NCBI GenBank assembly: GCA_002633005.1
Contig: NMRA01000310.1
Location: 66,624-130,623, forward strand
DNA from: Phoronis australis
Taxonomy: Eukaryota; Animalia; Phoronida
Direction of reading: 5' to 3'
Length of the DNA stretch: 64,000 bases
Part shown: positions 16,872 to 42,660 of the stretch, piece by piece
Layout of the letters: every line of letters begins with the position of its first letter
Numbering within the stretch: position 1 is the stretch's first letter
Translations under genes and position numbers: made by a program
Notes under the pieces: model-generated
Told to the model about the DNA's origin: nothing
Databases searched by the model: none
The model's input: only the letters and a program-made list of their open reading frames with translations

Positions 16872-16944
16872 CTGGAACACCGCCATCATTGCCATGCTAA
16901 ATGTGTCGTAATGCTGTTTGGGTCGCCCGTCCTCGAAGTTCCAC
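16872..16944 (-). CDS. Cav2: Cav2 alternative domain II turret/P1 exon A (73 nt)
   Basis: WNFEDGRPKQHYDTFSMAMMAVFQ; caccag| ... |GTAGAT; phase 2/0. Confidence 0.9.
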
Positions 16945-17760: not shown

Positions 17761-17892
17761 TGGCCTCCAAAGAGTTGCATACCCAGCAGGGCGAAGATCA
17801 ATATGAAGAGAAAGAGCAAGAAGAGAAGACTGATGATGGAGCGCATGGAACTGAGCAGTGATATGACCAGGTTACGTAGAGATGACCAGTAT
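17761..17892 (-). CDS. Cav2: Cav2 exon, IIS5 (132 nt)
   Basis: [44 protein letters not shown]; tttcag| ... |GTAAGT. Confidence 0.96.
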
Positions 17893-18000
17893 CTGAAATG
17901 TAATACCACGAACATTCACAGTTTTGAAGCAGAGTAGTGATGTGACCAGGTTACGTAGAGATGACCAGTACCTGAAATATAATACCGTGAATATTCATAG
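17863..18000 (-). repeat. About 79-bp tandem duplication of the acceptor and 5' end of the IIS5 exon
   Basis: tgaccaggttacgtagagatgaccagta(t/c)ctgaaat occurs twice, giving candidate exon starts at 17892 and 17971. Confidence 0.85.
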
Positions 18001-18091
18001 CTGTCACTATTATTGACCATGGAGCTATCACAACGTGCCAACCACTACACTTTCTTTTTACGATTTTACTCCATCATTGGCTGACACTGAC

Positions 18092-18201
18092 CTTGTGACC
18101 TTGAATATACGTAGTAGACGAAGAGCTCGCATCACACTGAAGCCAAATGAACCGCCTCGAAAGTAGGACCAAAGGACTTCAAATAAACTACCAACTATGA
18201 C
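18092..18201 (-). CDS. Cav2: Cav2 exon, IIS3-IIS4 (110 nt)
   Basis: [37 protein letters not shown]; ttgtag| ... |GTCAGT. Confidence 0.96.
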
Positions 18202-18691
18202 CTACAAGGGAAAATGGGGAATTTGAGCACAAAAATGAAGAATGAACATTGTGCGTGACATCAAGATAAAGGACCACACCATGGCTACATTCCATAGCCC
18301 AAGTTTCTTGCAAGAAAAACATGATCACACAAGTCTTCGCGAGATATTGCCATGCATAACAACCGAAGCACATGACCACAGTAGACTTTCTCGCAAGTTG
18401 CCTTAGATTGACAGAATGCAGGCCTGAGTTAAAAATTAACCACGTTAACCCACAACCAAATACTACTAATGACATACTATCAGAATTCTTACGAGCTTTG
18501 AATAATATAAAAAAACAAAGATAATGGTTACATCTTATGTTTTTTTCAGGGAAAATTGCTTACAAACCATATATACAGCATGGGAAACACCAGAGTAAAA
18601 TATTAATGGAAAATAAATATTATTTCGGATATAACTGTATTGGGCTAATACACAACATTTTACTGCATACTTGAGGAGTCTGTGCACTTAC

Positions 18692-18804
18692 CACACAGTC
18701 AAACTTGTTAAAAGATGATTGCCAATATACACGGAAGCCAAGACCGTACATTTTGATGAGCATTTCACTGATGAACAAACACAAGAACGCGTACTCTGAT
18801 ATAC
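18692..18804 (-). CDS. Cav2: Cav2 exon, IIS2 (113 nt)
   Basis: [37 protein letters not shown]; ttgcag| ... |GTAAGT. Confidence 0.96.
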
Positions 18805-18808
18805 CTGC

Positions 18809-18920
18809 AATGGCAAACAAAATGGCATCAGGACAAACAAAATGGCATCGGGACAAACAAAATGGCATCGGGACAAACAAAATGGCATCGGGACAAACAA
18901 AATGGCATCGGGACAAACAA
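18809..18920 (+). repeat. 20-bp minisatellite (aatggcatcgggacaaacaa x5 plus a partial copy) abutting a 3' splice site
   Basis: Units at 18821, 18841, 18861, 18881 and 18901. Confidence 0.95.
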
Positions 18921-20115
18921 ACATAATTGGTCAGTCGACTTTATTTGAAATTCCAGTTGCTGATGGGGCATTTTGTCAGTTGCTCAATTTTTCAAAACAA
19001 AGAACAAAAACTTCCACCGAGATGATGATGATCTGTGACTTGTTTTTTAATCATCAATAGACAAATTCAAACTTTGCTTAACCTTACTTAGGTGTATTTG
19101 TGTAGCTTTTAAAAAACGCGAACCTTGGCTCAAATTGGTCTGGACGGGAGTTTTTTAAGTCAGTGAGCGCAGGTCTCAAAATGAGTCAGGGTACAGAACA
19201 GAACCAATCATACTTCTTGTATGGCCAAAGCAGTGTGACTACACTGTTCTCCAAACTCGCCAGGAATTTCTAAGAACAAGACTACAAATTTGAAAGAATA
19301 CCTCCACACATCAGGGTTTGCACACAAAGCCCAGGAATATCACCACTGACCCCACTGGCGCCAGCGTCAAAATTAAGCTCGTACTGCTCAGCACAATATT
19401 CCTAAATGCACACGTTACCATACTCGCCAGAATGTGTATTCTAGCAAATTCTAAACAGGCCACATTGCCGCGTCTTCAGTCAACTTTGTGTACAAGACAA
19501 GTTGATGCCACATTATTCCGATGCAATCAACGAGCAGGACACATCCCTCAATTTCATATCCTTGTGTTGTTGCTGTTTTTAAGTCTCTCATTTCCAAGAT
19601 CCGTTAAAAAGGGCGTGATAAATACTGTGCAAGACAGCAAATGGAATTTTGATGTACGTCGCATCGCAAACGCAAGAATGTAGATCACAATGTCTTGCAC
19701 TGTTAAGCAGCGCCATTCAAGACATACGCAAGGTCAATCAGTTTCACCATTTTGTCAGTTATTTTGCATGGAATTACTATAAAAATTCAAAATTTTACAG
19801 AGTTAAACGTTTTTTTCAGCCTATGGCGCAGAATAATCTCGCGCTGACCTAAAGGTTTCAACAGCGTAAAATTTCACCAAATAAAGGCAGAGTATAACAG
19901 ACAAGTAAGACCTTATTGTTTCATTTCTTTTCATAAATTCGTTTAATTTCTAGTAAGCTCTATACCCTAACTAGCATCAGAGAACGTTTTGAGAAATTGA
20001 GAGAATTCACGCAACAAACGCTTTGGAAAACGGGAAGAAGAGCAATTTTGCAAATTATTGTTACCCAAATGAGATCAGGTTTTCCCATACACCTGAGGCA
20101 ATGTCGGATGCTTAC

Positions 20116-20243
20116 CTAAGAATTTGGTCAACCAATCGGGTTGACCGTAATGTTCTACAGCCACACACAGTGTGTTCAGAAACACTAGCACAATGACCAC
20201 CCAGTAGAACCCTTGTGACTTGACCACACGGCGGATGAAGAAC
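20116..20243 (-). CDS. Cav2: Cav2 exon, IIS1 (128 nt)
   Basis: [42 protein letters not shown]; ttttag| ... |GTAAGC. Confidence 0.96.
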
Positions 20244-23200
20244 CTAAAACACAATTAATAATGCTCTGTGTTTGACAATGTGAAAGACGCAACAAGAGGA
20301 CACGATGACTACATAAGTCATTTAGAATTATTTAGTCATTACATTGGATATGCACTTTGGCATGGAGACTAGAAATGTCTAATTTGTAGCTAATTCTATA
20401 AGCAGTCTTTACACAGAACCTGACGATGGTGAATGAATCCAGATGTCGCTTATTTGTAATGGAAATTATCATCACTATCTTCAACGTAATTGGCTACATT
20501 TGTTGCCAAAGAACAGATTTCTTAAATACCTTTCTTACTAACTGTAAGCCCATGAAACTATATATTCTTAAAATACTTGATGACCAAGGAATCGTATAAT
20601 AACCCCATGTTGATAATCACACCATTGCACTGATCCATGTAATTTCCACAAACACAAATTTTTCGAATGAAACTTGAAAAGTCTGTTTCTGAATTACATT
20701 AAATACAAAAGCCTGTCTGCAATTTGCTCTTCTAACCCAAGAACTCCGCTGTCAAAAATGAAGATGTCAACAATTTTTAAAAAAATGCAGGTCTTAATTT
20801 TTGACGGCTAAGTTCTCGAGCTAAGAAGCCTTAAAATGAAAATTGAAGACGCACCTGTTTATAGCTAATAGAATAAAGGAACAAAATTTGCATGTTTAGC
20901 CCAAAGTGCTACACCTGGAAAATATGGTGACCTCCGCAAAAATGCCATAAATGTGATTAAAAACATCCGTGCATTGTTTTCACACACATAAGAAATTTCT
21001 GCGACCATCAAGGATTTTAAAAATATATTGTTTTGTGGGACTGCTGTTAAACACGTAAAAAGTTACTTAAGAGATTCTACCCATAGTAATGAAGGTATTC
21101 CATTACATCAACATTCAATTGGTAAATAACAAACACACTGACAACAAAGGCAGGTTTCCGTAACGCTAGTTTCTTGCGACTTTGGTGAGATCATACTATT
21201 CTTTGCGAGATGGCGCCATGCATCACATGTGAAGCACACGTGACTATCTGACCTTACGAAGTGGGCCGCGGGAAATACGTTTTGGGTTGGTTCGACCGCA
21301 TGTGATGCTGAATATAATGGTCTTCAATAGGGTCGTCCTGGATTACACAGCGACACTCGAATCTCGCTGTATTTACCCACAATGCCGTAAACATCCGTCA
21401 GGCACATTTGCTGCCCCATTTTCGTGCCACTGGAGTTTCACACGTTATTCGTTGATTTCAGGTTTTTTCTCAGTTGCAATACTCTATATGTCCTTCCAAT
21501 GCTAACAAAGTACTACTGCTGTGCCGTGAACTGCAACTTCAATGTGAGAAAGTTTGATAACCAGATAAAATAACCATGGATGCGTGATCTGAAATTCTTC
21601 GCTTTCTCGACATCAATGAGACACGAAAATGTTCCCCATTTCCAAAACGACGTCACAAGCTTTCTTAACTCCAGGACAAAGGAGAGTTCTATCGCCGTGT
21701 AATCCAGGATGGCCCTATTAGTCACATTGTATCACACAATATGATACAATACTCTATAACCAGTTAATTAGGCGCCTTAACTGTAATGGAGCTGTAGAAC
21801 AAACTTGAGTTTTTTACACTTGCAAATTTTTATTGTGAACTACAGTCCATGTCGAAAAACAACAAAAATTTTAACAGAAATCTCACTCCCTCATTTGACC
21901 CGTTAATAATAACACTCTCTCGTCCAACGCATTAGTTGCTATACTCTTTGAAGAATTTGAAAGTCAAAGGTCACGGCCTCTGTCCAACTGCAAGTTGTGA
22001 AAAGTTTGCAATCGCCAGCGCCCCCTCTAGGTATACAACAAATGACCGTCCGGTGTAACACACAAACACACGTTAACTAAAGACAACCAAAACCAACCAA
22101 TCACGTCAGGCCTACCTTAACCTATTTTGACTACGTAGATACAGAAAAGGATAGGATTTAGAATTTAGTCATGCACAACAGCACCGAGCTTAGCCGGAAT
22201 AGCAGGCAGAATACTAAAGACATTTGAAGATCTTCCGTAAAAGAAAAGTAACACGCAGCTATGTGACATAACATTTAAAAACAAGTACAGCATGAAATTA
22301 AATAAGTAATGTCCATTGTCGTTAGTAACGGTCCATTGTAGTGTGACCACATCAAGACACAGTGTCGAGAAGATGGGAATGCAAGAACGAAGCAACACAG
22401 TCCAACATGGACACGTGACAAACTGATACACTGTAAGTCTCCACTTATTGTGTGCAAAAAATCGCCAAAATTGTTGTATTTCCATTTTCAAAGGATGATT
22501 GCCTCATTGTAAACATAATGGAAGATTTACTGAAAGCTGTTTTATGACATCTACACTGCTCAAACCATGCTAGTAATAGACTGAAATTTTCTTAGTAAAA
22601 ACGAGAAAAATTACTTGCTAGGAGACATTTAATTAGTTGAGCATAACATTGCAAGCCCGCAGCTCACATGACTGTTCTTCCCGGTTATGTGATCAAAGGC
22701 CTGAGCTACAGGCTGGAAACGCTATGCTCAACTAACTTAAAGTCTCTTAGTAAGTAACTTTTCTTGATTTTACCATCATCACAGGAGACAACGATGAACA
22801 CTTTTAACCGTAAAATTTTCTAATAATCTATCTTTGTGGAGAAATTTGACCCAATAGAATTTCACTTGTCAGCCCTTTCGCGTGCTAAAAAAGTGTAGGA
22901 TTACCGTATTTTACAATAATCTTAAAGACACAAATACGTTTGAAGAAAAGTATAATCAGAGAGTATTGTAACTATTAAACAAATTTGTAAACATTGTGGA
23001 ATTTTGTTGGCATATTCCTTGCCGAAAAATCGGGAAACAAAGTCACGAAAAGTTGATGGAGAATGGAGAAAGGTGAACCAAAGCCGATATACCATAGAAC
23101 GGTATGTTTTAAAATGATACCGTGTCAGAATATCACCATACCATTTTTGATACTGCATGCAGCCACAATTAGGAAGTGTCCAAAATTAGTGTTCTAGTCA

Positions 23201-23583
23201 ACACACCTCACTAGTGGTATACCACCTGAATGTGTTGTTGTGAACATTGAGCTACAGTCACTGTGTGAAATGACCATAGGTCAATATGGAAAAGTGACCA
23301 CGAGTCACCCTGAAGTGGTGGTCAACAGTCATTATATCATATTGATTGACAGTCACTGTGTAGAAATGACCTCTAGTCACTGCTGTGGTGACCAGTTGTT
23401 ACCATATTATACTGACTGCTAGTCGCTGTGATGAAATGACCATAGGTCACTGTCCTGAAAAGACCGCTAGTCACTATAGCAACTTAAGTAAAGGGTCACC
23501 CGTCAAGAATTTCTTAAGATTTTGAGTTAGTTGCATTCACTTAATGAAGCTTAGCCACATTATGCGATGGTCACTGTGCTTAC

Positions 23584-23764
23584 CGGAATCTCTTCTCACT
23601 TGTCCAGAAGCCGGCACATTGACCGTTCCTAGCCGTCTCGTTGTTTAATGGATTTGACATGTCCATGTCACTAAACAGATCTTCTTCATTGTCCGTCTTA
23701 TTTACATCCACTTCTTTACCACCCTTCATCTGTTTTATTTTCCGCATGGCTGCCCTCCGCCGGG
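23584..23764 (-). CDS. Cav2: Cav2 exon, distal I-II linker (181 nt)
   Basis: ARRRAAMRKIKQMKGGKEV...CAGFWTSEKRFR; ttttag| ... |GTAAGC. Confidence 0.92.
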
Positions 23765-23867
23765 CTAAAAACCCAAACATTCTTCGATGACGCTTTACAG
23801 AATACAAGAAATTCAAGACAGTTGTGTACACGAAGTACAAAATAGATTCATACATCCAGAATAAGCA

Positions 23868-24003
23868 CGACTACTAAAAATTCTTTTGCCATAGGACCAT
23901 TCCCCTCATGTTCATGTCGTCAGTTTGAGGATGGCATAAGAAGGCTGAAAACGCTCACAAGGTATATTTCCGTCGTCTATGCCAAAAGAATTTTTAGTAG
24001 TCG
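23868..24003. mobile_element. Small MITE-like inverted repeat in intron
   Basis: cgactactaaaaattcttttgccatag ... ctatgccaaaagaatttttagtagtcg, arms of about 27 bp. Confidence 0.65.
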
Positions 24004-24145
24004 CCTGTGTATACCTAAGTGATAGCGAAAAGACTGAAAAAGATGGATGGCCTTTTCTTTAATGTTTGGTCAAAAGGGGTACGTGAATGTATCGGTGACA
24101 CAACTGCCACCAAAAGCTCTTAAACATTGTACGCAAAACGCTAAC

Positions 24146-24321
24146 CTTCGATTATTTTCATTTTCTCTTCATCTGTAGTCCTCTCTTCATTTAAAATGAC
24201 CTCCTCCGCTTTACATATCCACTCGAGATAGCCGCTCAACTGACGGTCTATCTGTTGCTGTTTCCGTATCTTCAGAAAAGCCCGTCTATTTTCGACTCTT
24301 TCTCTTTCTTTGGCAAACTCT
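24146..24321 (-). CDS. Cav2: Cav2 exon, I-II linker with AID (176 nt)
   Basis: [58 protein letters not shown]; tttcag| ... |GTTAGC. Confidence 0.95.
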
Positions 24322-26440
24322 CTGAAATCATGAAGCAAACGATTTTACCAAACATCAATCATCTGCTGCAGTTCAAAATTATTGTTACCTGGAATTTTTG
24401 GAATGAACTGAATTAAAATCATTCTTTTTGGCATAAAATCCGCTAACAGGTTAAATATCCATTTATAATGAGCGACAAGTGTCACCTACAGCATGATATA
24501 ATGCTTTCTAGAGCCTTCTCCAATTATTGTTTGATTTTACTTTTTGTGACAAAAATTTTAAAAAGTCTACCACAACAAATCTTCAATTTGGGAAAAACTA
24601 TTTGATAAAATTGCCATTTTACAATGTCATATAATACCGTACCTTCAAATCAAAAATTTGAAACATTGGTATACCAATCATGCTAAAAACAAAGTAAAAA
24701 TTTCTGAAGTCATTTTTGTAGAGAAAATTTACAAAAAATACAATTTTCCACCGTACTGTGTACTAAACTAGAGATTTTTAGTATAAACCTTTTCCAAACA
24801 AAGCTGAAGTTTTTGATGAGACATCACATATTTAAAATAATTACTAAAACGTATTTAGTATTTTTTACATTCTTTTGAGGAATTATCACAATCCACTCCA
24901 TTTCTCTGCCATGTTTTGTGCTACATGGGAGACGACTCCAGTTTCTATTCAATGCAGCAGCTACTCAATAGACTGTGCATTTGATAACTCTCTGATCCAA
25001 CAAAGATGGTATTTATGGCAAATTAATTCCATAGAACTGTGAGGGTTAATTGCATTAGTTCGCAATATAATTTATGAAGGCGAAGAACCGACACTACCAA
25101 TTAGGAGCTGTGTAAATTATATTTGTATTAGCCAATGACGTGGGTGTGTTTATCTCTATGTTTAATAACCGCAAGTTATCTAGTATCAGATGTTAGCACA
25201 GCTACTGCGATCTAAACACTTAAACGCCTATGTATCCATTGCTAACACTACACAAACACTTAACGTTATTATCAAGCAAACAAATTGAATTTTACAATCA
25301 GTTTGTGATCGCAATAGCTCTTATCACATTTGTTTTCGGCCAAAACATGAGTACGAACTTTAAAATCAGCGCTTACATTAACGAAGACATTGTATTCTTC
25401 CACGTTTCGATTTATTATCAAGAACATTTGTCTTGAGAATGGTTTAGTGAAAACAAACTGAAACATTGAGTAATACGTCTTTGTTGTATGCGCTGATTTT
25501 AAAGTTCATACTAACAGCTCTTATGTTATGGTACTTTTTCGCTTATTTTGCATAAAAAAACTGCCAGACAATTTTTGCTATTCAATGGCTGACAACCTTG
25601 TTGCAAATAACAGAAACATTCCCAAATGTTGTAATATAACTTTTAAATGGTACAAACATTAACACGCTAATAGACAGAAAACCTGAAAAATAAGCTTAGA
25701 ATTATTGGAAAATTTGCGTACACTCTTTTCAGGCAGTGAATAGCCTCTCACTCTGTAGCCTGTTACATGACCGAAGATTTTCACATAACTTTTTGAAAAA
25801 CATCAAGTTTATCACCTTCACTAACACCTCCATGAATTTTACTCGCAGAAAAACACAGAAGAAAAAATACATACTGACACTAAAAGTTTTAACCTTTAAG
25901 CAAGGGTCAGTGGACAGCTATTATTTATGAATGGGAATTCCCAAGGGATGGCAAATTTGGCAAACCCCAGGTGTCCATTTTATGGCAGGTGGCTTAATAC
26001 TGAAATCTGGTCTTAATCTCCACACAACTATTTCAGAAAATTCTAATTAAACCTCACTTGAGCAAAAGTGAAGTCTCTGAGAACATACACATAACTGTCA
26101 GTTAATGAGGTAATTTCCACAAGTTATTTCTAGACTGTGATGCGCTCGTAATTTATTTGGCTAAACCTTTTTCAGCAATTGCGAAGAGGGAGTGAAAGAC
26201 CAAATATATCTGTATAGAGACTTACAGCACTTTCATGAAGCAGGCAGGCCTCTGGGCTTCAACCACTGTTGAGTATAACAGGCCATGAGCTAGTCATGAC
26301 TTGGGCAATAACCATGACTGTCAATACTGGTAAATGAAATGATTTTTCTAGAGCAGCTCTATTGGGGATGATTAAATTTGCAGAAGTCTCAAGACTGTTA
26401 TTATGTTTGTGTCAGCATACACATTAATTTTTCGTTGTGA

Positions 26441-26495
26441 CTATATATATATATATAGGTATGTATATGTATATGTATATGTATATTGTATATAT
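26441..26495. repeat. TA / TATATG microsatellite
   Basis: Direct inspection. Confidence 0.85.
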
Positions 26496-27210
26496 GTTGA
26501 GTACATATAGTCTCAAAGTCAAGGTCTTTAACGGACAGACTTCTACAGACCTATGTCACTGCCAATTAGCAACTAGTTCCATATTAAATAGATCCCCAAC
26601 CAATGCCGTATGACATCATTCCCAGACCACATGAGCAGACAATGTAAGTTTTGCATGCTGTGCACCAACATGAGCAGACGATTGTAAGTTTTGCATGTGG
26701 AGCCAGTTATCTCTGTGACATGCGGCTGAGTGTGAACATTAAAAACAGGTGTTTTGCTAGCAACATTAGTATGGCTTGGCCATGCTCACGACTATACATT
26801 GTATCTGGGTTCAGTTTCATGAAATGTGACTTCAAAGACTGAAGTCAGAAATTTGGTCTCACGCTCCACATAAGTATTTCTGAAAAATAATTTAAAAGAC
26901 TCGAGCAAAATTTTACTTAAGTACAAAGTAACTGATAATATCTGCAAGTTACTGATAATTTATACAAATTATTTCAACATTGTGATGACTTCAAATTCTA
27001 AGTCATTTTTCATGAAACAGACAATAGGACACTACGATGGTTACACACATTATGAATTTTTGAAGCAACACTTTTATGTTGTCATTCGACATCTCAGTAA
27101 ATGTATCAGATACTCCACTCACATTCAATTACCATGTTAATTGGTATATTCATAAGAACCATCTCTTTTCAAGCCATTAACAGATATCACTTCAGCTGAG
27201 AATCTTTAAA

Positions 27211-27360
27211 GCCACTTACCCACTGAGAACACCAAGGAATAGGTTGTGAGATTATACCTTTAAGAAGGCCACTTACCCACAGAGAACACCTAGGACTAGG
27301 TTGTGACACTATGCCTTTAAGAAGGCCACTTACCCACTGAGAACACCAAGGACTAAGTTG
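27211..27360 (-). repeat. 57-bp tandem triplication spanning the IS6 exon 3' end and its donor site
   Basis: gccacttacccac(t/a)gagaacacc starts at 27211, 27268 and 27325. Confidence 0.9.
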
Positions 27361-27437
27361 AGCATGAAGAAGGAGCCAAGAATAATGAGTGGGATGAAGT
27401 AGATCCAATTGAAGTCCGGCCCATGGGCATCGTTTGT
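27334..27437 (-). CDS. Cav2: Cav2 exon, IS6 (104 nt)
   Basis: [35 protein letters not shown]; tttacag| ... |GTAAGT. Confidence 0.96.
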
Positions 27438-30142
27438 CTGTAAACACCAAATACATCCGGCACTGTTATAGGCACGTTATTGGTCAGGAGTTGATTTTCA
27501 CTAAAATGCAACTTAAATCATTCCCCTTAAACTAATTTGGTTTGCTTTTTATTCAAAATATGTGAAACGACGTATAGTTCTCAAAGAGTCATACTTCTGC
27601 ATTCTGTTTCACTGAGAAAAGACAACGACCAACTCTTTCATTGCAAAAGATATAATTTCAATTGCTTTTGATGGTAGAAACTAATTGTTAATATTACAAT
27701 TCCGGAACCACTGTCCTTCACCAGTCCACATGAGTCCTTGAAATATTTGATTAAAAACTGACTTATCATTTGGCATGAAATTTGACTTTACTCAAAGCGT
27801 GCAACGCCTTAGGTGGACTTCAAGTCTCTAGTAAATTTGAGTGGTATCGGCCCAAGGTCCATAGAGTATCGAATCACTGAACCCAAGACTTGACTAAGGC
27901 TTAAAACTTAACCAGTCATGTCACATGATTTGAGAGCAAATTTCGAGGTTTACTTGAACCAGGCGATAGAATGACTAATGACAAAAAAGATAAAAATTTT
28001 TTAGGAGATGCATCGTTCCACAAATAGGCTTGTGTCATAGACATATGTTTTGTGTTGTAAAATTTAATTGAAATAAATGTTTTTGCATCAATAAAGTCCA
28101 AATCAAAATAAGAGAGACAAAACAGGGGAAACTGGAAATCAAATAAAAAGGAAATCGAAACCACAAAAGAGGAGATCCTCTTAAGACACGAAAATTCCAA
28201 GCCCCATTGAATTTTGACATGTAACTGGTCATTTTTTAGTTGAGTTCCCAAGTAGAGATACCAGGCTAGGGCTGTAAGACTGAATTTGCCTTAATTTTCC
28301 AATTATTTGTTTAGACCACAAGTAGCAACGTGCTCACCTTACAAATGCCACCGACCTGAACTACAACCGCACTATTCAAAATTCAGAAGACAATGAGATG
28401 GTGGGGAAGTAACTATGGCGTTCATGCGGAACAGTTAGTCGTTCTCAGAACCCAATAATAGAATATCACGGCGATGCACGTTAAATATTCTCCAGTTTGC
28501 GACAGCCCATTATTTTTAGGACACCGAACTTCAAGCGGGAACATGTGTTGGCGTTCACTAATATTTTTCACATATGGGACACTGTTTTTTGCATCAAGTC
28601 AGAAAATTCTGATGACGTGCTATTGAAACTAGTGAAGCCCGTATCATACCACACAGATTCCAAAATTTCAGACATAGGTAATTTTGTTGTCTCTCAGAAT
28701 TCTTGAATTGAGACAGCCAACAGTGCCCGTTTCTAAAATTTGGTACAAGCTTTGACCTTGAGTAACATAATTCACAATCCCAACCTGGAGAACTTTTACA
28801 GAATTTATACTTTTTTCTGTAAGTTGTTAAGATTCAAAAATTACACTCAATCGCAGTTGACAAATAAAATATCATTTGAAATTATATTTCTTTCTCATTA
28901 TGTTGTTTTACAAAAAGCATCGAGTCTAAACAAAACAACATTCCCTTTTAAACAACATATTTTCTATATTCACTCACTCACTGAAAGTAAAAAACGTAAT
29001 TCCCCCTATTTCCCAGAATTCACAGCGGCAACCCTGGTAAACGACACTATCGCCTGGTAGCCGAGCATGGCCAACAACAAAGGCTAAGTTTAACAGGACA
29101 TACAATTAAGCAACACTACTGCAGAGGTATCATGAGCATAATGCATACAACATTGACACACTAAGTAAACTATTCCTCTGGACAAAAGATTTCATAACAC
29201 TAATTGTAAAAACGCAGTAAGAAATACAGTTTAGGTTAAATAACAGTGGTATTGCCCGATGGAGTGTGTAAACATCCACTTTGTAAATCTGTGGTTACCA
29301 CTTCAATTTTGGTAATAGTTGCAGTTAGAGATTTAAACGGACGTTCTGACAAGTTGTTGAATTGGTGAAACACCTGCTATGAATCAGGATATCCAACCGA
29401 TTTAACATTTAAAAATCTAAAAAACAGCACAATTTCGACATATAGAACATCAGGCAAACATTATGCAAAGCATGCCATTCTAGGTATTCTTTAACAGTTT
29501 TGGTCTACAACACCTAGAGATTGACGGGGTAAAGTCACATCTACACATATGTACATGTACCGGTATAAAGCCTACTATCTGATAACGTAGTCACCAGGCA
29601 ATCCGCATTTGAGGCATGATATTTTCTCAATCAGAAACCCAGTGACAAGACTTCGAGGCAAATGGCTACCAGTCATGTGGAACTCAATAATGACTAACAG
29701 GCACTAATGGCTACAATTGAAATCTACGTGAAGAGGGTGGAACATTTATTCTCAGCAGGAGATACGAGGACCAGCTTTTCACTCTGTGGGGGGTGAATGC
29801 GGCTATAGTTTAGGCCGAACATGAACATAACTTTGGCATTCGAGAATGAACATTACGCTAGGCTAGCATTGTTGATTTGAAGGAAAAATGGTGAATTTCT
29901 CGGACAGACAAGTAATGCGGAAGCCAGGAGACTAGATTTTGAAAAAACAGCAGTTATTAATATCCGGGGGGGGTCATATTGGTGGTGATGATCATCTGGC
30001 ATATGAGTGATTGTTCTCAAAACAAAAAAATCCAAATCATTGCACGCGATTAATGTAACCATCTGCTATTAAGTCCATCGCCGACACTCGAGCGAACATT
30101 GAGATCCTACGCCAATGCAAGGCGTGTATTGCAGTCACCTAC

Positions 30143-30342
30143 CCAATAAAGAACGTCTGTCCATCCCTCCATTGTAATACACTGGAATACTGTTAACATG
30201 GCAAAGCCTATATGATCATAGCTGGTGATGCCATCGTTAGGCCCGGGCCAGTCCAACAATCGACAAATGGAGGTATTACGCTGGCAGGTGGAATTCGAAG
30301 AGCACGGCACTGGCCTCCCCTCCCATTCGTCGATCTGGTCAG
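30143..30342 (-). CDS. Cav2: Cav2 alternative domain I turret/P-loop exon B (200 nt)
   Basis: [66 protein letters not shown]; gtgtctag| ... |GTAGGT; phase 1/0. Confidence 0.92.
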
Positions 30343-31396
30343 CTAGACACGATGGAAGATCACGTGTTAGGGTTGTAGAACATGCGGGGATCACACAACA
30401 TCAGAGTTAAGAGACATGCATGGTATGCCTAGTGTCAGAGTATGACAGTGTTGGTCACGTGAACACCACAGTGGCGCTACCTGTAGGTAATCTGATTGTA
30501 CTAGATGACCCAGTATAATATGACTCGACTGATTAGTCAGTATCTCTAAATGTTAGCTTAAGTAGATGCTGCAGCCAAAATAACACGAGTTTACATAACG
30601 TTGATGTCTGATCCCTTGATTTTTTTCATATCTGATCCATGGTATTGTAGCCCACATTTAGAATCTGTATAGTACAAAGAAATCATGATTCTCAACAGAC
30701 TTGACCATTTGCCTTGCTTTTTGTATTTATTGTATTATATCAGTGTTCTAATCCGAGTTGTTTTGGGACAATAGCTTCCCTGGGTGCAAAGTTCAAAGTA
30801 CGCGTTATCCTTCTGGCACACAAAACTGTTGAATCTCTTCCGGACCCCTACCGCTTAGCGAAACGGGAATTTTGATACTTTTTATTTTCAGATTCTGTAA
30901 AAAGCATTTTCAACAAAAACACATCATGATGTCATAGCCATAAACTTGCCAATTGCACTGTGTAATAATCTAGGTGAACAGTGATTTTACGAGTATTTGT
31001 AAGAGTATATTTGTTAAACGTTAAGGTTATTAACCAGTAAAAGGGAGGCTAAAACATTTTCAGCAAGCATACCAGTCTGCATAACGAAAGTTGACAGACA
31101 ACTACATTTTTGTCAGCTTGTGACCAATATAACATCAGACCCACCAAAGCGTGTTGCGATGCATCAGAATTTCATGATCGGGATCAAGTTGAAAATGTCC
31201 ATTATTATTCATATTAATTTTACACTTTGGCGCCACACGTGATTTTGGCAGCACTACTACGTCCTTTGTCAACGAATGCAGATTTGACATCACTGCCAGG
31301 CAGTCCAACAAGTACGTCACACTCTAACACCACGCAGTACAACATAGGTCAGTCCTCGACTATAGGGGGCGACCATGCATAGCACGTCCTACTTAC

Positions 31397-31605
31397 ATCA
31401 TATAACACATCTGTCCAACCCTCCATCGTAATACATTGAAAGACCGTCAGAATGGCTATGCCAATATTGTCAAAACTGGTAATGCCATCGTTTGGCCCGA
31501 TCCAGCCCTCCTGGCACATAGACTCGTTAGTGCACTTGTACCCATTGTTACCTTTTGACACGGAACAAGGATAGATGGAGCCACCTATCTCTTCGATTTC
31601 GTTGC
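31397..31605 (-). CDS. Cav2: Cav2 alternative domain I turret/P-loop exon A (209 nt)
   Basis: [69 protein letters not shown]; attacag| ... |GTAAGT; phase 1/0. Confidence 0.93.
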
Positions 31606-32340
31606 CTGTAATCCAGGCAGTTAGATTTAGCATACGACCTCGCTCAATACAGACAGATGGTAATAGCTGTAAACAAGTTCTGATGAATGTTGGGAGAGCC
31701 AACTTGGGAATATTAATGCATTAGTTAGACAAGAGGAGAGGCAACAATTAAAAATGCAATGTCTCACTAAAACCATGAATATTTAAATTTATAGCAAGCG
31801 CCACCTTGTGACGTCCTGGAGAATTGTGTGTACAAGAATACGGTGTTAAAGAAAACACCACAACTGGTACACTTAAAAACGAGACAGTGTGAATGTATAA
31901 AAAACCCTTACTAGTAATTTCAAATATTACATGTTCCTTATTTGATAGTGAAATGAACAAATAATAAAAGCTGTGCCATGTTTTATTAGGGTAACGATGT
32001 CATATTACCTTCTCGTTTACATAAAAATAGTCTCGCAAAATGAGACTTTCGCAAGATTGTAATGGTGTAATGGCAAATGGTTCTCGGATGGTTTCCGGCA
32101 CACCGGAAGAGCCGGAGTTGTTTGTAAACTAGTACTTCATTTGCATATTCACAATTTAATGAGACATAACATCTTTAAATATAATAAAAATAATCGCAGG
32201 CGGTCTGATACACGTTGTACCAGACGTGCGCGGGCCTCGCATGTGGGCCTATTGCACTGATCACCTGGAAATATTTTTATGCTTTATTGATATATCGTTA
32301 AAACCGAGCTGAGGAGCTGGAAACCTGGCTCAAGGGTTTA

Positions 32341-32416
32341 GCAGTGTGACCTGGTGGAACTTGAACCCACGACCTCGAGTAATGAAAGCGGGCACTTATC
32401 AACCAGGCCGCACTGT
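32341..32416 (-). mobile_element. Degenerate tRNA-derived SINE head or tRNA-like fragment
   Basis: Minus strand has an A-box-like gcggcctggttgataag and a B-box-like gggttcaagttcc at tRNA-like spacing. A full cloverleaf is not convincing. Confidence 0.4.
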
Positions 32417-33082
32417 CTCCTCTAGCATCTTTAAGTTATAATAATGAAATAACTGCTGCCAAGTCAGTGTGATCTCTCTAACAGGGTCCTCCATATGTCT
32501 GTCAAACTCAGTCTAAGATTGACCAATCACGCGACAAACCTTCCACTCAATCACGTAACTTCCAAAAACGAAAACAAGTTTTTTTGTTGGATGGAGTGAA
32601 GTAACAATTGAACCAAATGGTATGGATAAAAATTTGTGTTTGAAAAATTTTTGTCAGGATTCTAGGAACAGCAGATGCATGGGGTATCCAAATAAGAAAC
32701 TAGGATTTAAATATTTCCATTTCAGATTTACAGGGTGGCTCAGTTATGAGAAAAGACTGCACAGCACTGAGATGTTTGTATCCAACTGTTTGTATCCACA
32801 AAAATTGTCATAACCACCATAGTCAGCAATAGTTCGAAAATCGTTGAAATTTTGAAGCGAAAATGTAACCGCTGATTTTCAAATGGTTACATGACATCTT
32901 TCGGCTGATTTTCTGCAGCAGATTTGGCACAACCTTGACGAAATCAGACGAATTTCGAAGAAAATAGTCAATATTTTTTTGAAAACTACTGTATGTATGT
33001 ACCAAGGCCACAAGGTTGTTCATTTTTCTTTTCTATGCCTCTTGTAATCTCACAGTCACCTATTCCTAGTACACATACTTAC

Positions 33083-33232
33083 TGCCCACAAGATAACATG
33101 TATTGTGAAAAGCCCCATTGTAGAACTCTAAGCCAATAATGGCGAATATAACGATAGCAAATAACACGAGAAGAGCGATCTGCAACAGTGGCGCCATCGC
33201 TCGGAGAATTGAGTGTAGAACCACTTGTAAAC
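33083..33232 (-). CDS. Cav2: Cav2 exon, IS4-S5 linker and IS5 (150 nt)
   Basis: [49 protein letters not shown]; tttgcag| ... |GTAAGT. Confidence 0.96.
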
Positions 33233-33524
33233 CTGCAAAACAAAAAATCTTATAAGACAGCAATCAAGAGACAAGCTTATAACAATTAATCATCCATTTT
33301 ACCAATAATGAAAGCTTGCCCATAAAAATTCTGTAATTCGGCATTTATACTTTGTTGATTTCACAAACGCATATAAACAAACTTAAAACAAAACAATTAC
33401 GTATGACTGATTTATGTAACAAGCAAAACGCTCTCACATTTGACCTATTTCATAACTCATTCATAAAACCATGCTGATTAATTTATTTACATAATTTGGT
33501 TCACATACTACACCAATACATGCC

Positions 33525-33966
33525 AAATTCAAGGTACCTAAACTACATGGTCAACGGACTCGCAAACACAACTCACAGACCTGTAAACACCGTCCACTGA
33601 CTCACAAACACGGGAACGGACTCACAAAACACGTTCTACGCACCCAAATACACGGGACACAGACTCACATTCACCAGGAAACACGGTTAAAGGACCGCCA
33701 AACACGGGTCACGGACTCATCGGCTTCTTGGGTCAGCTGACATCTCCATTTTGTCCGTGACCCGTGTTTGGCAGTCCGTTAACCGTGTTTCCTCAGGAAT
33801 ATGAGTCCGTGTCCCGTGTATTTGGGTGCGTGGATCGTGTTTTGTGAGTCCCTTCCCGTGTTTGTGAGTCAGTGGACGGTGTTTGCAGGTCCGTGAGTCG
33901 TGTTCATGCGTCCGTGCCCCGTGTTTATGAGTCCGTTGACCGTGTAGTTTAGGTACCTTGAAATTT
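33525..33966. mobile_element. Foldback/MITE element with ~200-bp inverted arms made of aaacacgg/ggactcac subrepeats
   Basis: ttcaaggtacctaaactacatggtcaacggactc ... gagtccgttgaccgtgtagtttaggtaccttgaa. Confidence 0.8.
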
Positions 33967-34380
33967 ATACTTTATTACTAGATCAAACTTTCCCAGTGCT
34001 CGGTCAGGTTGGAAATGGTAAATGTTTCCAATAGGTTCTGAATTCTCCAGCACCATGCATAAATTTTTGAAATTTAACATCAATCAAAATGAACAGAGAG
34101 ATATGAAAACATACATTTTTCTTCACTTGTGTCAAAAATGATTTTAAGTTCCGATATTAAAAATTAATTACTTTTCCAAAACTTAAGAATCATGCCAATG
34201 ACTTGAAATGTTTTGAACAAATTGACATCTCCGAAAATGTGTTCTTCCCTCATCTCATAACATGTGAAATTTCAACGGGAGAAAAAATTGAATCCCACAT
34301 AAGCCGCCCGATGCTCGTGCGGCTGACTGGCGGTAACAAGATATGGTGCAGAAAATAACTGGCCATGCTGGGAAAAGTTG

Positions 34381-37300
34381 CTGTTCAAAATTGTAATATT
34401 TTATTTTTCAAAGGCTGATTACGGTTTAATGGTTTGATATACCGTGTCCGAATTTTGAGAACCAGTTTTCTCCACTGAATAACGGACATCAAACTGGTTC
34501 TCAAAATACGCGCACGTTATATCAGACTGTTGCCCCTATTACTTCACTGCAAATAATGTGTACATTACGAAATTTTGTTACGTGGCGTCTAAACAGTAGA
34601 AGCCAAGCTAAAACCAGGCTAAAATTTTCTCAGTACTTAAATTTCCCTTGCCTGCCATACTGTATGCTAAATACGTCTGCCATATTGAATGCTAAATATG
34701 GCTGCCATATTGTATGCTAAATACGTCTGCCATATTGTATTCCAAATAGGTGAAGAGTTATGGAGACCTTTCTTAATTCGACAATTTTCAGTAATTATCC
34801 CAAGATACGTAGTGAAATAATGTTATAATGCCACGATATGTTACATTAGTCAGAGTACAAGCTATCCCACAATCAACACAGCTCCGACTAGGAAGAACAT
34901 TCTAGAATAAGATCAATAACTAAACAATAACTAAACAATAACTAGAGAGCACCTGACATCATGCAGTTAAAACAACGTTAGTTGGAGAAAAGAATGAGGG
35001 GACTTGGTAAATATTCACACCTGTTGAGTGCCAGTGATATCTCACCATTACACCAGTTGACTTTCCACTAGCGTGAGCGGTTAAATACCTGTGCTATCAG
35101 CCCTAACACATGCGTAATTTTTAATCTCACCAGTTTAGGACGCAGTATGGCAGACAGGTGAAATTCAATTTTCTGTTTCTTCGCAAAAGATAAGCAACAC
35201 GCAAGTTTTCCACGTTCCAAGCTCTGTATCCAAGGTACCATGAGACATTACTTTAACTGATTTTGGTCATTCAAAACAATCATAGCCTTTGAAAATGGAA
35301 AAAATAGCAAGTGTAGTAGTTTATCTTTCTGAGGTTTTAATTAAATGAATGCTGAATCAAGTTTCTGGAAAAAATATTCCATGCTTACCATGGACTCTTC
35401 ATTTTCAGGATATATGGCAAATTTTCTTTCCATGTGTTGAATTTATTGTTAAGCGTAACTACAGACATGACGCGACTCGCTACACGAGGGCTTATATTTA
35501 CCAACGGAAACTTCCTGTGAGGTTGCCAAGGGCATTTATATCCTGCTTTCATGTTCTGAGTTTCCAAGCATGGAAACTATCTTTTCATATTTTCCAGGTT
35601 TGTCCTGGCAAGTGGGAGTGTGAAATTTTGACAAACACTGGAACCTGTGCGATTATTTTTTGTGAATAAATTACCCTACTTTGCAAAACAAACCTGAATA
35701 CTGAACTGATAGCAATATAACAGGAAAATCAAGAAAATAACTGATTATCATTTAAAATTAAGACCTCTACAGTCAACACATTCACAAAAGCCCCCTTTAT
35801 ACCATGTTAAAAGTTTTGGAGAGTGTCGGTTTGTATAAATTGTCGGTCTTCGATACAAATAGAGATCAAGGGTTAATTTTGCAATAAATTGATGAATTTA
35901 AGAGCGAGGCATTTATGCTTCAATTTTAATATGAAAGGTTAATATCGGTATTATCAGCAAGAGTTGCTGCCAATAACATAATGAGTTCTGTAACCTTTTG
36001 ACCTTTTATTGAAATGTTAACCATCTAACATGACTATAAGCACTTCATTTTCCTTATTATCCAAACGTACGCACCACACTTCATATTCAAAAAAATTGTA
36101 CCCACATAATGTTTCGCATCACCAATTTTCGACGAGTTCTACAACCCAAGCAAGAACTCANAGTCTCTGTTCAAAATTGTAATATTTTATTTTTCAAAGG
36201 CTGATTACGGTTTAATGATTTGATATAACGTGCCCGAATTTTGAGAACCAGTTTTCTCCACTGAATAACGGACATCAAACTGGTTATCAAAATACAGGCA
36301 CGTTATATCAGACTGTTGCCCCTATTACTTCACTGCAAATAATGTGTAATGATTATGAAATTTTGTTACGTGGCGTCTAAACAGTAGAAGCCAAGCTAAA
36401 ACCAGACTAAAATTTTCTCAGTACCAAAATTTCCCTTGCCTGCCATACTGTATGCTAAATATGACTGCCATTTTGTATGCTAAATACGTCTGCCATTTTG
36501 TATGCCAAATACGTCTGCCATGCTAAATACGTCTGCCATATTCCAAATAGGTGAAGAGTTATGGAGACCTTTCTTAATTCGGCAATTTTCAGTAATTATC
36601 CCAAGATACCCAGTGACATAGTGTTATAATGCCACGATATGTTACATTAGTCAGAGTACAAGCTATCCCACAATCCACACAGCTCAGACTAGGAAGAACA
36701 TTCTAGAATAAGCTCAATAACTAAACAATAACTAGAGAGCACCTGACATCATGCAGTTAAAACAACGTTAGTTGGAGAAAAGAATGAGGGGACTTGGTAA
36801 ATATTCACACCTGTTGAGTGCCAGTGATATCTCACCATTACACCAGTTGACTTTCCACAAGCGTGAGTGGTTAAATACCTGTGCTATCAGCCCTAACACA
36901 TGCGTAATTTTTAATCTCACCAGTTTAGGACGCAGTATGGCAGACAGGTGAAATTCAATTTTCTGTTTCTTCGCAAAAGATAAGCAACACGCAAGTTTTC
37001 CACGTTCCAAGCTCTGTATCCAAGGTACCATGAGACATTACTTTAACTGATTTTGGTCATTCAAAACAATCATAGCCTTTGAAAATGGAAAAAATAGCAA
37101 GTGTAGTAGTTTATCTTTCTGAGGTTTTAATTAAATGAATGCTGAATCAAGTTTCTGGAAAAAATATTCCATGCTTACCATGGACTCTTCATTTTCAGGA
37201 TATATGGCAAATTTTCTTTCCATGTGTTGAATTTATTGTTAAGCGTAACTACAGACATGACGCGACTCGCTACACGAGGGCTTATATTTACCAACGGAAA

Positions 37301-37947
37301 CTTCCTGTGAGGTTGCCAAGGGCATTTATATCCTGCTTTCATGTTCTGAGTTTCCAAGCATGGAAACTATCTTTTCATATTTTCCAGGTTTGTCCTGGCA
37401 AGTGGGAGTGTGAAATTTTGACAAACACTGGAACCTGTGCGATTATTTTTTGTGAATAAATTACCCTACTTTGCAAAACAAACCTGAATACTGAACTGAT
37501 AGCAATATAACAGGAAAATCAAGAAAATAACTGATTATCATTTAAAATTAAGACCTCTACAGTCAACACATTCACAAAAGCCCCCTTTATACCATGTTAA
37601 AAGTTTTGGAGAGTGTCGGTTTGTATAAATTGTCGGTCTTCGATACAAATAGAGATCAAGGGTTAATTTTGCAATAAATTGATGAATTTAAGAGCGAGGC
37701 ATTTATGCTTCAATTTTAATATGAAAGTTTATCGGTATTATCAGCAAGAGTTGCTGCCAATAACATAACGAGTTCTGTAACCTTTTGACCTTTTATTGAA
37801 ATGTTAACCATCTAACATGACTATAAGCACTTCATTTTCCTTATTATCCAAACGTACGCACCACACTTCATATTCAAAAAAATTGTACCCGCATAATGCT
37901 TCGCATCACCAATTTTCGACGAGTTCTACAACCCAAGCAAGAACTCA
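34381..37947. repeat. About 1.78-kb near-identical tandem duplication around a single n (36161); probable assembly or haplotype artefact
   Basis: 34381-36160 matches 36167-37947; identical ORF pairs 35349/37139 and 35385/37175. Confidence 0.88.
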
Positions 37948-38954
37948 CGGTACAATACTTTGGTTCACTTTCGACACCAGCCTTAAAGGTTCCGCTAACT
38001 AGTTGGTTCACACTGATAACCTTCTGGTACAGTTGGTGTGAAAGGGTCTTAAGTGAGTGACAATCACGCGGTAGAGACGGTCTGTATTTCACATGCATAG
38101 GTCTGAGTTAAAGCATAACAACACAATGCATGCTCAATTCGAATGCAATGACATGGTGCGAACACGCGCATAACACAAACAGGTAGAAATATGAGATAAG
38201 AAGGTACAGTAACTCCCAACTTATTTCATATAAAAAATAATTGCCAAAATTGTCATTTTTTCCATTTTTGTTAAACTGATTACTTTACTGCAAACCAAGA
38301 AAAAATTACCAAAAGTTGCTTTACGACATCAACACAGTAAAAAGCATGGTAGCAATGAGACTAAATTTTTCTTAATCTTTATTTTTGTTTAGAAATTTGA
38401 CATAATAGAACTTCACTTGTCTGCCATATTGTATGCTACAAAAGTGAAAAAATACCATAAGATAACTGTGTTCGTCTCAAGTGAGAAATACCATGCAGGG
38501 TAATGCTCAGATACAACGCGCCCGAATTTTGAGAACCAGTTTTATCCACTGAATAACGGGCATCAAACTGGTTCTTAAAATATGGGCGTGTTATATCAGA
38601 ATTTTCAAGAGAATATTCACGACTTTACGCTAACCTGGAAAGCAGAATACAGTGTCATGCAGTAATGAACATGCCGAGGTAAATAATCAAGTCAACAGAG
38701 GCCATACTAAACAGTCGTGCACACATTACAGACAACAGAGGGCGTACTAAACACAGTCGTGTACACACTACAATCCACAGATGCAGCAGACTTACGGTAC
38801 CTTCCACTTAGAATTCAATATCAATTAACATGCAACAAAGGAAATGAATTCAACATTGGTGCACGAAACATGAAGCATCAAACTTTTTTATTGCACATAA
38901 AATGATGTGAACCAATTAGCGGAAGGTACCGCGGCTGTACAGTAAACACATTTA

Positions 38955-39173
<219 letters not shown>

Positions 39174-40332
39174 TTACAATACATTTACAGACGGACACAA
39201 ACAAAACGAACTGCAAGTAATACTGTATTGTCTAAATCAGTAGACATGACCATGAAATGCCCGACTTTATCTTAGCAACATTAGAACAGCATGAATAAAT
39301 TAACATTCTCAAACATGTCTTTGAACAAACAATTGATAAATCCACTAACGACCCGAACACAATCTCCATGTGTCTTCTCTCCCTTAATTAACAATGAATA
39401 AAGTGAAAAAGGAAGATGTTCAGTCCCAGGGGATGTACTTATAGTTTCATGCCATCGTACAGCTGTATGGTAAAAAATTTCACAACGCACAGTCGCACAC
39501 CTGAATTTCAATCAATTTCATTAATAAACGCCAGGCTCAGTTATGCGCACCCGCCCCCAATTTACATTTGAGACTTTCAGGCCAAGACCTTGTTAATATG
39601 TACCGATATATCGCAATCACAAATCTCAGCAACCAAAAACCTCACAGTTCACATGAGCACGTCCCTGTCGTATGCGAATTAATTGTAAGTCGCTTGTGCT
39701 GCAGTCGTCTCCACTTAAAAATTTCAAGCTGAATTTTGCCCTGCTTGCCTTAAAAATGAAAATCAAATTAGACCCCTACTCTGATAAACTCAGTCGCATA
39801 CTTCTTATCACAATAAGATCTGATGTTTGTTTCCAACAAGAACATCAGCAACTTGAGAAAACTCATCCAAGTTTATCGGGCTTCGCCAGCCATGAAATTG
39901 TGAATTTAAAAAATTGGTGCGCACAAGCACTGGTTGTAACAATCTCAAAATTGCGAATGCAAAAATTGCGCATGTAGACACGCATTGCCTGTGACTTGAG
40001 TTGGCAACAGAATAGAATGCTGTCACAGACACTATTATCAGACCGATTTTATGAGAGTAAACGGCCAAATTCAATTTTCTTTTTTAGCCAGTTAGACAGG
40101 CCAGTGAAATATAGCTTTAGATGTAAAATTTAACAGTACATTGTAAAATGTAAATTGAGCCACTGAACGCACAGATCTCAAATAAATTCTCCCACCAGGA
40201 CAATTCTGAACAGAAAGCTGCCACACAACTCACAATCGTACATTGACATTTATATAGGGACACACGGCTCCACCTAGTGGGTAACATTAATCACAAGGTC
40301 AAGGACAGACAAAGACATCATCCCTGACTTAC

Positions 40333-40424
40333 TCTCAAAACCAGTCACTAATTTCAAAGGACGCAACACCCTAATAGCCCTGAATGCCGGCTGTTTAAAT
40401 GCCGGAATAAGAATGGAGAAACAC
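40333..40424 (-). CDS. Cav2: Cav2 alternative IS4 exon A (92 nt, divergent, R1->P)
   Basis: [30 protein letters not shown](S); tttcacag| ... |GTAAGT; phase 2/1, same as exon B. Confidence 0.88.
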
Positions 40425-41529
40425 CTGTGAAAATCATGGCAAGTTGAATGAGTGAACAACAGAATTAGGAAAGACCTAATAAATGCATTAACTAATACAA
40501 AAAATTCTTGTATTTCAATCAACTATATCAAGCTCCATTTTCAACTTATGCTTTGCAAATATGAAGACGTTAATGACTGACGAATCCTCGAAAAAATGGC
40601 GCAGTCCCTGCTAACATGTAAAAACTAACAGTTTAAAGTATGCTAGACACAGGTAAGTATGACACACAGAATTCCCACGGCAAGTTCTTTTAATCATGCA
40701 TCAACCAGGAATCTCTGGTTGATGAAAGGCACCAACATAAAACAAAAACACTGAATTGTAGGCACTAACATGTCTGAATACTAAGGAAGCTATACAGTGG
40801 TGCATTTAAGGCCCCCCCCNAATTCTTCTTGATTCCAACATTCTATATGGCCGTTCGGGGAAGCATATGTCTGAAGGGCAAAATCCTGACTAATATTCTT
40901 CCTTGCAACCGCCCCCAACTCAAAATCATGGATCCGCCCCAGCTATACACCCCCTATTCCAGCCAAGTGGTGAGCTTCTTGTTTAGACAGCTCACCTCTA
41001 TAAAACTGGTCTTAAATTGTTCCTAACTGAGAGAAGTGGTTCATGGTTTTGAAAAGAACTGGCAAAACCTCCCTTCTTCTTAAGTTTATGTCCAACCCTA
41101 ATTAGTTACTTCCACTCTAAACAGATTATTAAAAAAACTGAGATGTCACCTGACAAAAAGTATACATTTTTTGAAAGTATAAAAATCAGGGATTCTGTAA
41201 AATATGCTTTTTACCAGCACCAGTAGTACGACTTTATTTATATGCTCATGTCAACATGTTTTCAGTTGAATTTTCATTCTATGTAGGATCCTAGAAAAAT
41301 TGTCAAATTTGGCAACTTCGGAGAATCAAATCTCGGGTATTTCCTATCTGCTTCATATGAAACATTCGGATACACGATTTATGCACTGTCCTCCAAAACT
41401 AGTTGGGAACTGTTTTCAAAAATTTAACGCTCCTGAGACTTTTGCATAAGGTGCTATCAAACAAGAGTAACGCGGAGCGTTGAAATGCGCTCACGAATGC
41501 ACTACAAACGGTGTGCTTCTAGGGTGTTG

Positions 41530-42660
41530 TATCATAAAAATGGCCACTAGATGGCGCAAAATATTTCGAATCCATCAAAAAACTGAAAAATGTCACCATT
41601 TTTAACGGAGAGTTATTTACCACATTTCATGAAAATCCATCAAGAAACTAGCAAAACGGGAAAAATGAAATTGCTACTATGGACACAAAGGTTTATCAGA
41701 TCCACTTGAAAGTTGTCGACTTCTGTTGTCAACGTCATATAAATACACTTGCTAAATTCAATAAACATTCTGCAGAGGGTTTAGGAAATACAGCTAAGGG
41801 TGCAAAAAAAACTGCCACTAGGAGGCGCCAGAGTAATTGAAGCTGGAAAATCATCGTCAACCATCCTCTTCACGCTAACAATATATAAGCCAATTTTCAT
41901 GATCATCATAAGAGTGGTTTGGTTGACAGAGGGCACACGGCAAAAACAGACTAAAAAACAGTAAAACTGGCCACTAGATGGCGCAAAATATGTTGAATCC
42001 ATCTGAAAACTGGAAAATATCACCGTTACTTTAAAAGAAAGCTATTTAACAAATTTTATGAAAATTCATAGAGGAACTTCAGAGAAACACAGAAAATGAA
42101 GTTGCCACTAGGGGGCACTGTTAGTCAAACCCGTCTGAAAGTCATCGTCTTCTGTTGTTAACTTCACATAAACACACATTGCTACATTTAATACAGATCC
42201 TGTAAAGCGTTTAGGAGATACTGCCACTAGGACGCGCCACAGTAGTCGAAGTCATCGGAAAATAATCGTCAACATCCTCTTCATGGTAACTTGAACATAC
42301 ATGCCAATTTTCACAATCATCCTTAAAGTGGTTTGGTTGGCAGAGGGGCGGACGCCAAAAAAAGACTTGAAAACAGTAAAAATGGCCACTAGGTGGCGCA
42401 AAATACTTCGAATCCATCAGAAAAGTGGAGGATAGCGCCACCTCATTAATAGATGCCTACGTATGTGCCAAATTTCATGAAAATCGGTTGAGGATCTTTG
42501 AAGATACAGAGGCAAATGTAAAAAACTAAAATTGCCACTAGGGGGCACAGCAGTATTCGGATCGATCCGAAACTCTTTGACCTCTGTTGTCAACCCCACA
42601 GAAACACACCTGCCAAATTTCAATAAGATCCTGTAAGGGGTTTAGGAGAAACAGCCGCGG
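41530..42660 (+). repeat. Diverged ~420-bp tandem repeat (about 3 units) carrying seven CTCF-like GCCACTAGRNGGCRC motifs
   Basis: Motifs at ~41543, 41814, 41970, 42104, 42223, 42385 and 42534, all in the same orientation; the 42223 copy is degenerate. Confidence 0.75.

Follow-up and report, generated by a model that had tools for sequence, protein, structure and literature searches.

The locus analyzed here raises the question of whether a calcium channel gene of the phoronid Phoronis australis possesses two alternative exons for the pore loop of domain I, and whether both of these exons are functional and used one at a time. We analyzed a stretch of 64,000 nucleotides (assembly GCA_002633005.1, contig NMRA01000310.1, positions 66,624 to 130,623 of the forward strand), which is referred to as the window; all coordinates are given as positions of this window. 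Gene identity, the structure and age of the two exons, their RNA coverage, and their distribution among other animals were particularly considered.

The window contains a part of a CaV2 alpha1 gene. The gene starts at 54178 on the minus strand, and the coding exons found (4879..54178), all of which lie on this strand, extend from the N-terminus to domain III S2-S3 near 4880. The filter Glu was found in domain I, in both copies of its pore exon, and in domain II; the pores of domains III and IV lie outside the window. In a quick tree of 31 rows based on domains I-II, the Phoronis australis gene was placed on the CaV2 side (26 rows, SH-aLRT 100), apart from CaV1, and outside both the mollusc (99) and the arthropod (100) clades. 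It adjoined spiralian rows with a support of only 90 in this quick tree, and the nearest row was that of the annelid Ridgeia, with 76% identity. The assignment to CaV2 rests on the remaining exons because CaV1 structures slightly outscored CaV2 structures when the pore exons were taken alone.

The order of exons in the region of interest is IS5, exon A, exon B, and IS6. The IS5 exon (33083..33232) is present in a single copy, encodes the first turret Cys, and ends with a phase 1 donor, while the IS6 exon (27334..27437), also a single copy, has a phase 0 acceptor. Most of the domain I turret is encoded by exon A (31397..31605, 209 nt) or exon B (30143..30342, 200 nt), each of which runs from phase 1 to phase 0 and encodes the turret, P1, the filter Glu, and P2. 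The coordinates given in the initial annotation (30143 to 31605 for the pair, with junctions from 33083, the end of the upstream exon, to 31605 or 30342) turned out to be exact. Both exons are flanked by canonical AG/GT sites: tacag/GC and GAT/gtaagt in exon A, tctag/CT and TGG/gtaggt in exon B. The donor of exon A matches the consensus GTAAGT, and a branch-like TCTAAC is present as well.

Comparison of the translations bore out that the motif GPNDGITS, a 16-residue filter segment, and three turret Cys are retained in both exons. The turrets themselves differ in the way originally described: the Cys residues are separated by 10 and 5 residues in exon A and by 5 and 6 residues in exon B, the glycosylation sequon NES of exon A is replaced by NST and NTS in exon B, and FDN in A corresponds to YDH in B. 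A gap as short as that between the first two Cys of exon B is rare, five or fewer residues being found in 1 of 98 distinct turrets. The last codon, eight residues after the filter Glu, encodes Asp in exon A and Trp in exon B. Turret charge is alike, with six acidic residues in both copies and two versus three basic ones.

Each of the exons matched solved CaV chains with E values from about 1e-25 to 1e-29. These values, together with the confinement of the likeness between A and B to the exons (75% DNA identity over 118 nt, the flanking introns showing no similar match), indicate that the matches are not due to chance. Exon-sized protein searches (proteins of up to 2000 aa) revealed no close relative of either turret among the matches listed (120 for each exon), where the best identity on partial spans was 71% for exon A and 73% for exon B. 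No close copy of the two turrets was found in a representative-sequence search either. When the peptides of the two exons were modelled in isolation with AlphaFold, the models (mean pLDDT 63.9 for A and 53.7 for B) were too poor for use.

The reading frame from IS5 to IS6 is open with exon A alone or with exon B alone. Inclusion of both exons leads to a stop at residue 354, and omission of both to a stop at residue 286. Exclusivity would therefore be kept mainly by the reading frame, since the intron between A and B, at 1054 nt, exceeds the length at which steric exclusion operates, and an early stop would cause transcripts containing both exons or neither to be degraded. Nonsense-mediated decay would be the route of their removal. 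We failed to find a long complementary docking/selector pair around exons A and B; the inverted repeats present there were short and chance-like. Under this mechanism, the choice of exon would equip the same filter with either of two turrets, exon A presumably being spliced in some cell types.

Selection was measured between copies A and B and against homolog cores. In the 36-codon core, 30 of the residues are identical, and half of the corresponding codons (15/30) differ silently. Silent divergence between the exons is saturated (pS 0.773), while pN is as low as 0.119 (Fisher p 5e-9), which shows that both copies have been under purifying selection. In neutral-drift simulations (20000 trials per rate), a stop-free core with at least 30 of the 36 residues retained was obtained once when 0.3 changes per site were allowed and never at 0.5; at the lower rates of 0.05 and 0.1, the cores still looked intact in 58% and 18% of trials, respectively. 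Both copies have thus been constrained for most of their history, and a recent loss of one of them is compatible with the simulations. The suggestion of an old duplication with both copies maintained is supported by these simulations and by the contrast of saturated silent sites with a conserved core.

Compared with the consensus of 72 distinct CaV2-type cores, a set dominated by insects and molluscs, exon A has seven differences and exon B six (homologs, 0-11). The rare residues are Ile at −12 (0/72) and Asp at +8 (1/72) in exon A, and Tyr at −17 (0/72) and His at −15 (3/72) in exon B. Since single-exon species also show very diverse turrets, the differences between the turrets of A and B could be partly neutral. 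In a tree of the pore exon only, from which one of 26 homolog rows was omitted as it had no motif, exons A and B were placed in an open fork, so the duplication cannot be dated from that tree.

Transcription was assessed in three raw RNA runs of the same species label (X1, X2, and X3) with low coverage, of which ~18-19% each was read. The bin of exon B had a depth of 5.63 in X3, with zero depth in both flanking bins; its reads were in a single orientation, the same as that seen on the other exons of the gene. In X1 and X2, the depth of this bin was 0.22 and zero, respectively. Exon B is expressed, and it is very likely spliced because the coverage is bounded exactly by the ends of the exon. 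In X2, the two bins overlapping exon A reached depths of 0.57 and 1.22, and neither X1 nor X3 had reads there; by this sparse and ambiguous signal, the exon A region is transcribed in a different sample (X2) from exon B.

In X2, reads were also found in the intron after the exon A donor (depth of 3.24 at 31143-31342 and 0.56 at 30943-31142), and IS6 was without X2 reads. This intronic coverage is sense-oriented and ends before an AATAAA motif of the A-B intron (30881..30886, minus strand), a candidate intronic polyadenylation signal; later non-repeat bins of the intron were empty. The intronic reads (4/4, with four starts) share one variant at 31172 and show no other difference.

Splice joints of exon A or B with at least three reads were not found in the ~18-19% of the three runs. 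A wide read mapping at 90% likeness, which was swamped by repeats, listed a single joint that links exons of the gene model, 17892-18092 (1, 10, and 2 reads). For the junctions proposed as a check, from 33083 to 31605 versus 30342, no joint was listed. Mutual exclusivity is supported by the logic of the frame, with no junction read listed and with clean exon-bounded coverage for exon B only.

The pair could owe its existence to an assembly or haplotype artefact, as the window is draft-like, with isolated N positions here and there and a gap of 259 nt. However, an identity of just 75% in the core, together with introns that are unalignable, is far beyond an allelic difference. Additionally, region 27300-33300 is free of N, and IS5 and IS6 are present as single copies. 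We consider an artefact very improbable, in agreement with the initial view that these are not assembly duplicates. A more serious alternative is that exon B works while exon A is mainly unproductive, read-through of the latter to intronic polyadenylation resulting in a truncated domain I product or in down-regulation. The sense reads of X2 beyond the exon A donor, stopping before the AATAAA at 30886, fit this explanation, and read-through of the donor leads to a stop 15 codons on. At the same time, the signal amounts to very few reads, all from one run out of three, and could represent nascent RNA, and the donor of exon A is a perfect GTAAGT. Moreover, a truncated product needs no intact P1-filter-P2 core, yet exon A keeps this core under strong constraint. 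Mainly unproductive use of exon A is thus rather unlikely.

It is somewhat less probable still that exon A, after a long functional past, is now a silent relic. It lacks a listed junction or exon-bounded coverage in the three runs, and two of its residues, Ile at −12 and Asp at +8, are seldom or never seen in CaV2 cores. RNA sampling was thin, however (~19% of three low-coverage runs), and Asp at +8 is common among the CaV1-like exons of the fetched loci. Exon B also has a residue found in none of the 72 cores (Tyr at −17) and is nevertheless covered by reads. The frame of exon A, both of its splice sites, the three Cys, and the sequon are all intact. Our analysis indicates that A and B are intact, frame-matched domain I pore-loop exons with the same filter Glu and different turrets, which are likely spliced in a mutually exclusive manner; the probability of this reading is estimated at about 0.78.

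If exons A and B are spliced alternatively, a candidate signal for their choice is the hexamer TGCATG, which we take to be an Rbfox-type site. It was found on the minus strand 18 nt after the donor of exon A (31374..31379) and 78 nt before the acceptor of exon B (30415..30420), the latter, a candidate repressive site, being accompanied by GCATG at −43. Rbfox sites located downstream of an exon activate it and those located upstream repress it. With sites after the A donor and before the B acceptor, an Rbfox-type factor would favor exon A over exon B. TGCATG occurs in neither of the outer introns (before A and after B), and five hexamers are common to the two 100-nt flanks with TGCATG. The naive joint chance of this placement is ~0.001, for a pattern that was noticed post hoc. 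A TGCATG switch around the two exons is thus a lead only, drawn from motif positions. Near the single-copy IS1 exon, TGCATG was also detected at 48768, 48648, and 48506 (−147, −27, and +10), next to a U12 acceptor.

When 21 exon translations were searched against the window, two further tandem pairs and no others were found in the gene; these pairs, like the identity of the channel as CaV2, are absent from the initial annotation. One is a pair of IS3-S4 exons (40333..40424, 92 nt, and 38966..39072, 107 nt), both running from phase 2 to phase 1. The other pair encodes the domain II turret/P1 (16872..16944 and 16559..16631, 73 nt each). The copies of the domain II pair share 16 of 24 residues, with saturated silent sites (pS 0.77) and a pN of 0.23; Cys is absent from them, and inclusion of both copies or of neither results in a stop. 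Whichever copy is chosen from each of the three pairs (eight combinations), the frame of 713-721 aa is free of stops. The IS4A/IS4B-like pair appears ancient, as both types are annotated in 4 of the 13 isoform groups examined, namely the gastropods Haliotis, Pomacea, and Patella and the crinoid Antedon. An alternative domain II turret/P1 exon was not found among the annotated isoforms matched in these 13 groups.

The occurrence of a second domain I pore exon in other animals was analyzed using annotated isoforms and genomic loci. The isoform survey comprised 174 annotated proteins from 13 groups (molluscs and a crinoid), no cluster being represented by more than 15 listed members (for Mytilus, 15 out of 59). 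The region is covered by 167 of these proteins. No second domain I turret was evident in the 167 isoforms listed, beyond small differences tracking species. Turret differences in oysters belong to the latter type, while those in Biomphalaria are likely due to paralogs, as the IS5 sequence also differs. Three proteins with two pore motifs (from a tapeworm, a bird, and a tortoise) contain near-identical or partial repeats and are likely gene-model artefacts.

A metagenome scan yielded 563 confirmed stretches, the best 80 of which were considered; 37 of the 80 span IS5 to IS6. An intron after the pore exon was present in 24 of these 37 loci (12 CaV2-like, 11 CaV1-like, and 1 unclassed, with some near-duplicates). 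None of the 24 intron-bearing loci, taken from the best 80 of 563, had a second domain I pore exon. As a control, the same queries recovered both exon A and exon B in the window. With no second domain I pore exon in the 24 loci or the 167 isoforms listed, the A/B pair looks lineage-restricted. The 3′ border of the exon lies at the same codon in many of the fetched loci, which indicates that an ancestral exon was duplicated whole. Judging from these sequence comparisons, whole-exon duplication probably occurred within this lineage. In a CaV1-like locus (L058:658-810), the last part of the domain I pore exon is repeated in tandem over a short stretch together with its donor.

Ion-channel genes commonly contain mutually exclusive exons. 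Exons 8/8a of CaV1.2, a tandem mutually exclusive pair, encode IS6, i.e., the exon directly following the one duplicated here, and two IS6 starts were found among CaV1.2 homologs. In vertebrate CaV2, the tandem mutually exclusive exons 37a/37b are known (PMC7235277); they are located in the C-terminus, whereas A/B are located in the domain I pore loop. Cacophony, the CaV2 channel of Drosophila, has mutually exclusive exons 5/6 (IS4A/B) and 10/11 (I-IIA/B) (PMC12370356). Exons 5/6 and the IS4 pair of our gene agree in position, channel family, and splicing mode. The two cacophony pairs named in that paper alter the voltage sensor and an intracellular linker, neither of them being in a pore loop.

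Closer counterparts are found in other four-domain channels. Invertebrate CaV3 genes, including LCav3 of Lymnaea, possess exons 12a/12b, alternative S5-P1 loop exons with different Cys patterns (PMC7382465; PMC4436565). Like A/B, these are alternative extracellular-loop exons of a four-domain calcium channel. However, CaV3 exon 12 lies in domain II, encodes the turret only (with three versus five Cys), is widespread, and produces a measured Na/Ca switch. The pair described here belongs to domain I of a CaV2 channel, additionally includes P1, the filter Glu, and P2, has three Cys in each copy, and is apparently lineage-restricted. NALCN has alternative exons (15 and 31) that encode the filter residue of a single repeat (PMC4436565). 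There, Glu is swapped for Lys at the filter, while in A/B, the Glu is kept and 16 surrounding residues are identical. Alternative pore-loop exons are thus known for CaV3 and NALCN, and the domain I pair of CaV2 is a variant for which no published match was found. No published description of an alternative CaV2 domain I pore exon was retrieved in a search that included few subscription journals.

A section of PMC7382465 asks why CaV3, and not CaV1, CaV2, or NaV1, has alternative extracellular loops, and links this to the binding of accessory subunits. If the pores formed with A and B are functionally distinct, they would be a counter-example to the view that the alpha2delta-tied loops of CaV1 and CaV2 lack alternative forms. 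If both exons are spliced, they would also offer a comparison made by nature, in which backbone and filter stay constant, of how the domain I turret, the glycans on it, and the flanking P1/P2 residues affect trafficking, gating, and permeation. The pair represents a single lineage, in which it is known here from sequence and from RNA coverage of exon B.

The contact of the domain I extracellular loop with alpha2delta, stated in the initial annotation, agrees with a review according to which alpha2delta touches the IS1-S2 loop in addition to ECL I-III (PMC10761187). The gene in the window has alternative versions of two of the three alpha2delta-contacting pore loops. A change in alpha2delta dependence with the choice between A and B is only a possibility, because the turret is a contact, but the metal-bridging Asp for alpha2delta sits in the IS1-S2 loop (PMC10761187; PMC12303104), encoded here by a separate exon without a duplicate in the window. 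An effect on the block by peptide toxins is a weaker guess, since the contacts of ziconotide and calciseptine listed in the review are all in repeats II to IV, with none in repeat I (PMC10761187).

In human CaV2.1, loss of the domain I P-loop sequon by N283Q decreased current density by ~72% and slowed inactivation (PMC5855841). The selectivity filter and turret charge are nearly alike in A and B; given these facts, the result on the CaV2.1 sequon, and toxin contacts located elsewhere, a tuning of trafficking and gating is favored over a selectivity switch or toxin block. The choice of exon is predicted, with roughly even odds, to tune surface delivery, current size, and inactivation via glycans and the alpha2delta-facing loop, without a selectivity switch. 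A wider proposal, in which the two pore-loop pairs and the IS4 pair yield functionally distinct CaV2 pores in eight combinations and the turret choice alters permeation, block, or alpha2delta dependence by cell type under an Rbfox-type switch, is regarded as unlikely.

Several other features of the gene were recorded. The first intron (53963-48622) has U12 AT-AC ends, with an ATATCC donor, a TCCTTAAC branch, and an AC acceptor; a U12-type intron is known at this place in CaV genes. The intron after the domain II P2 exon (14358-14075) resembles a U12 intron of the GT-AG type: it opens with GTATCC, and a branch-like CTTGAC lies close to its acceptor. Two sets of short local repeats copy a splice junction and may provide decoy splice sites: the IIS5 acceptor region is duplicated over 76 nt at 17846-18000, and three 57-nt copies lie around the IS6 donor at 27208-27378. 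Upstream of the IS5 exon, a MITE-like 172-nt inverted repeat composed of 21-nt units was located at 33525-33965.
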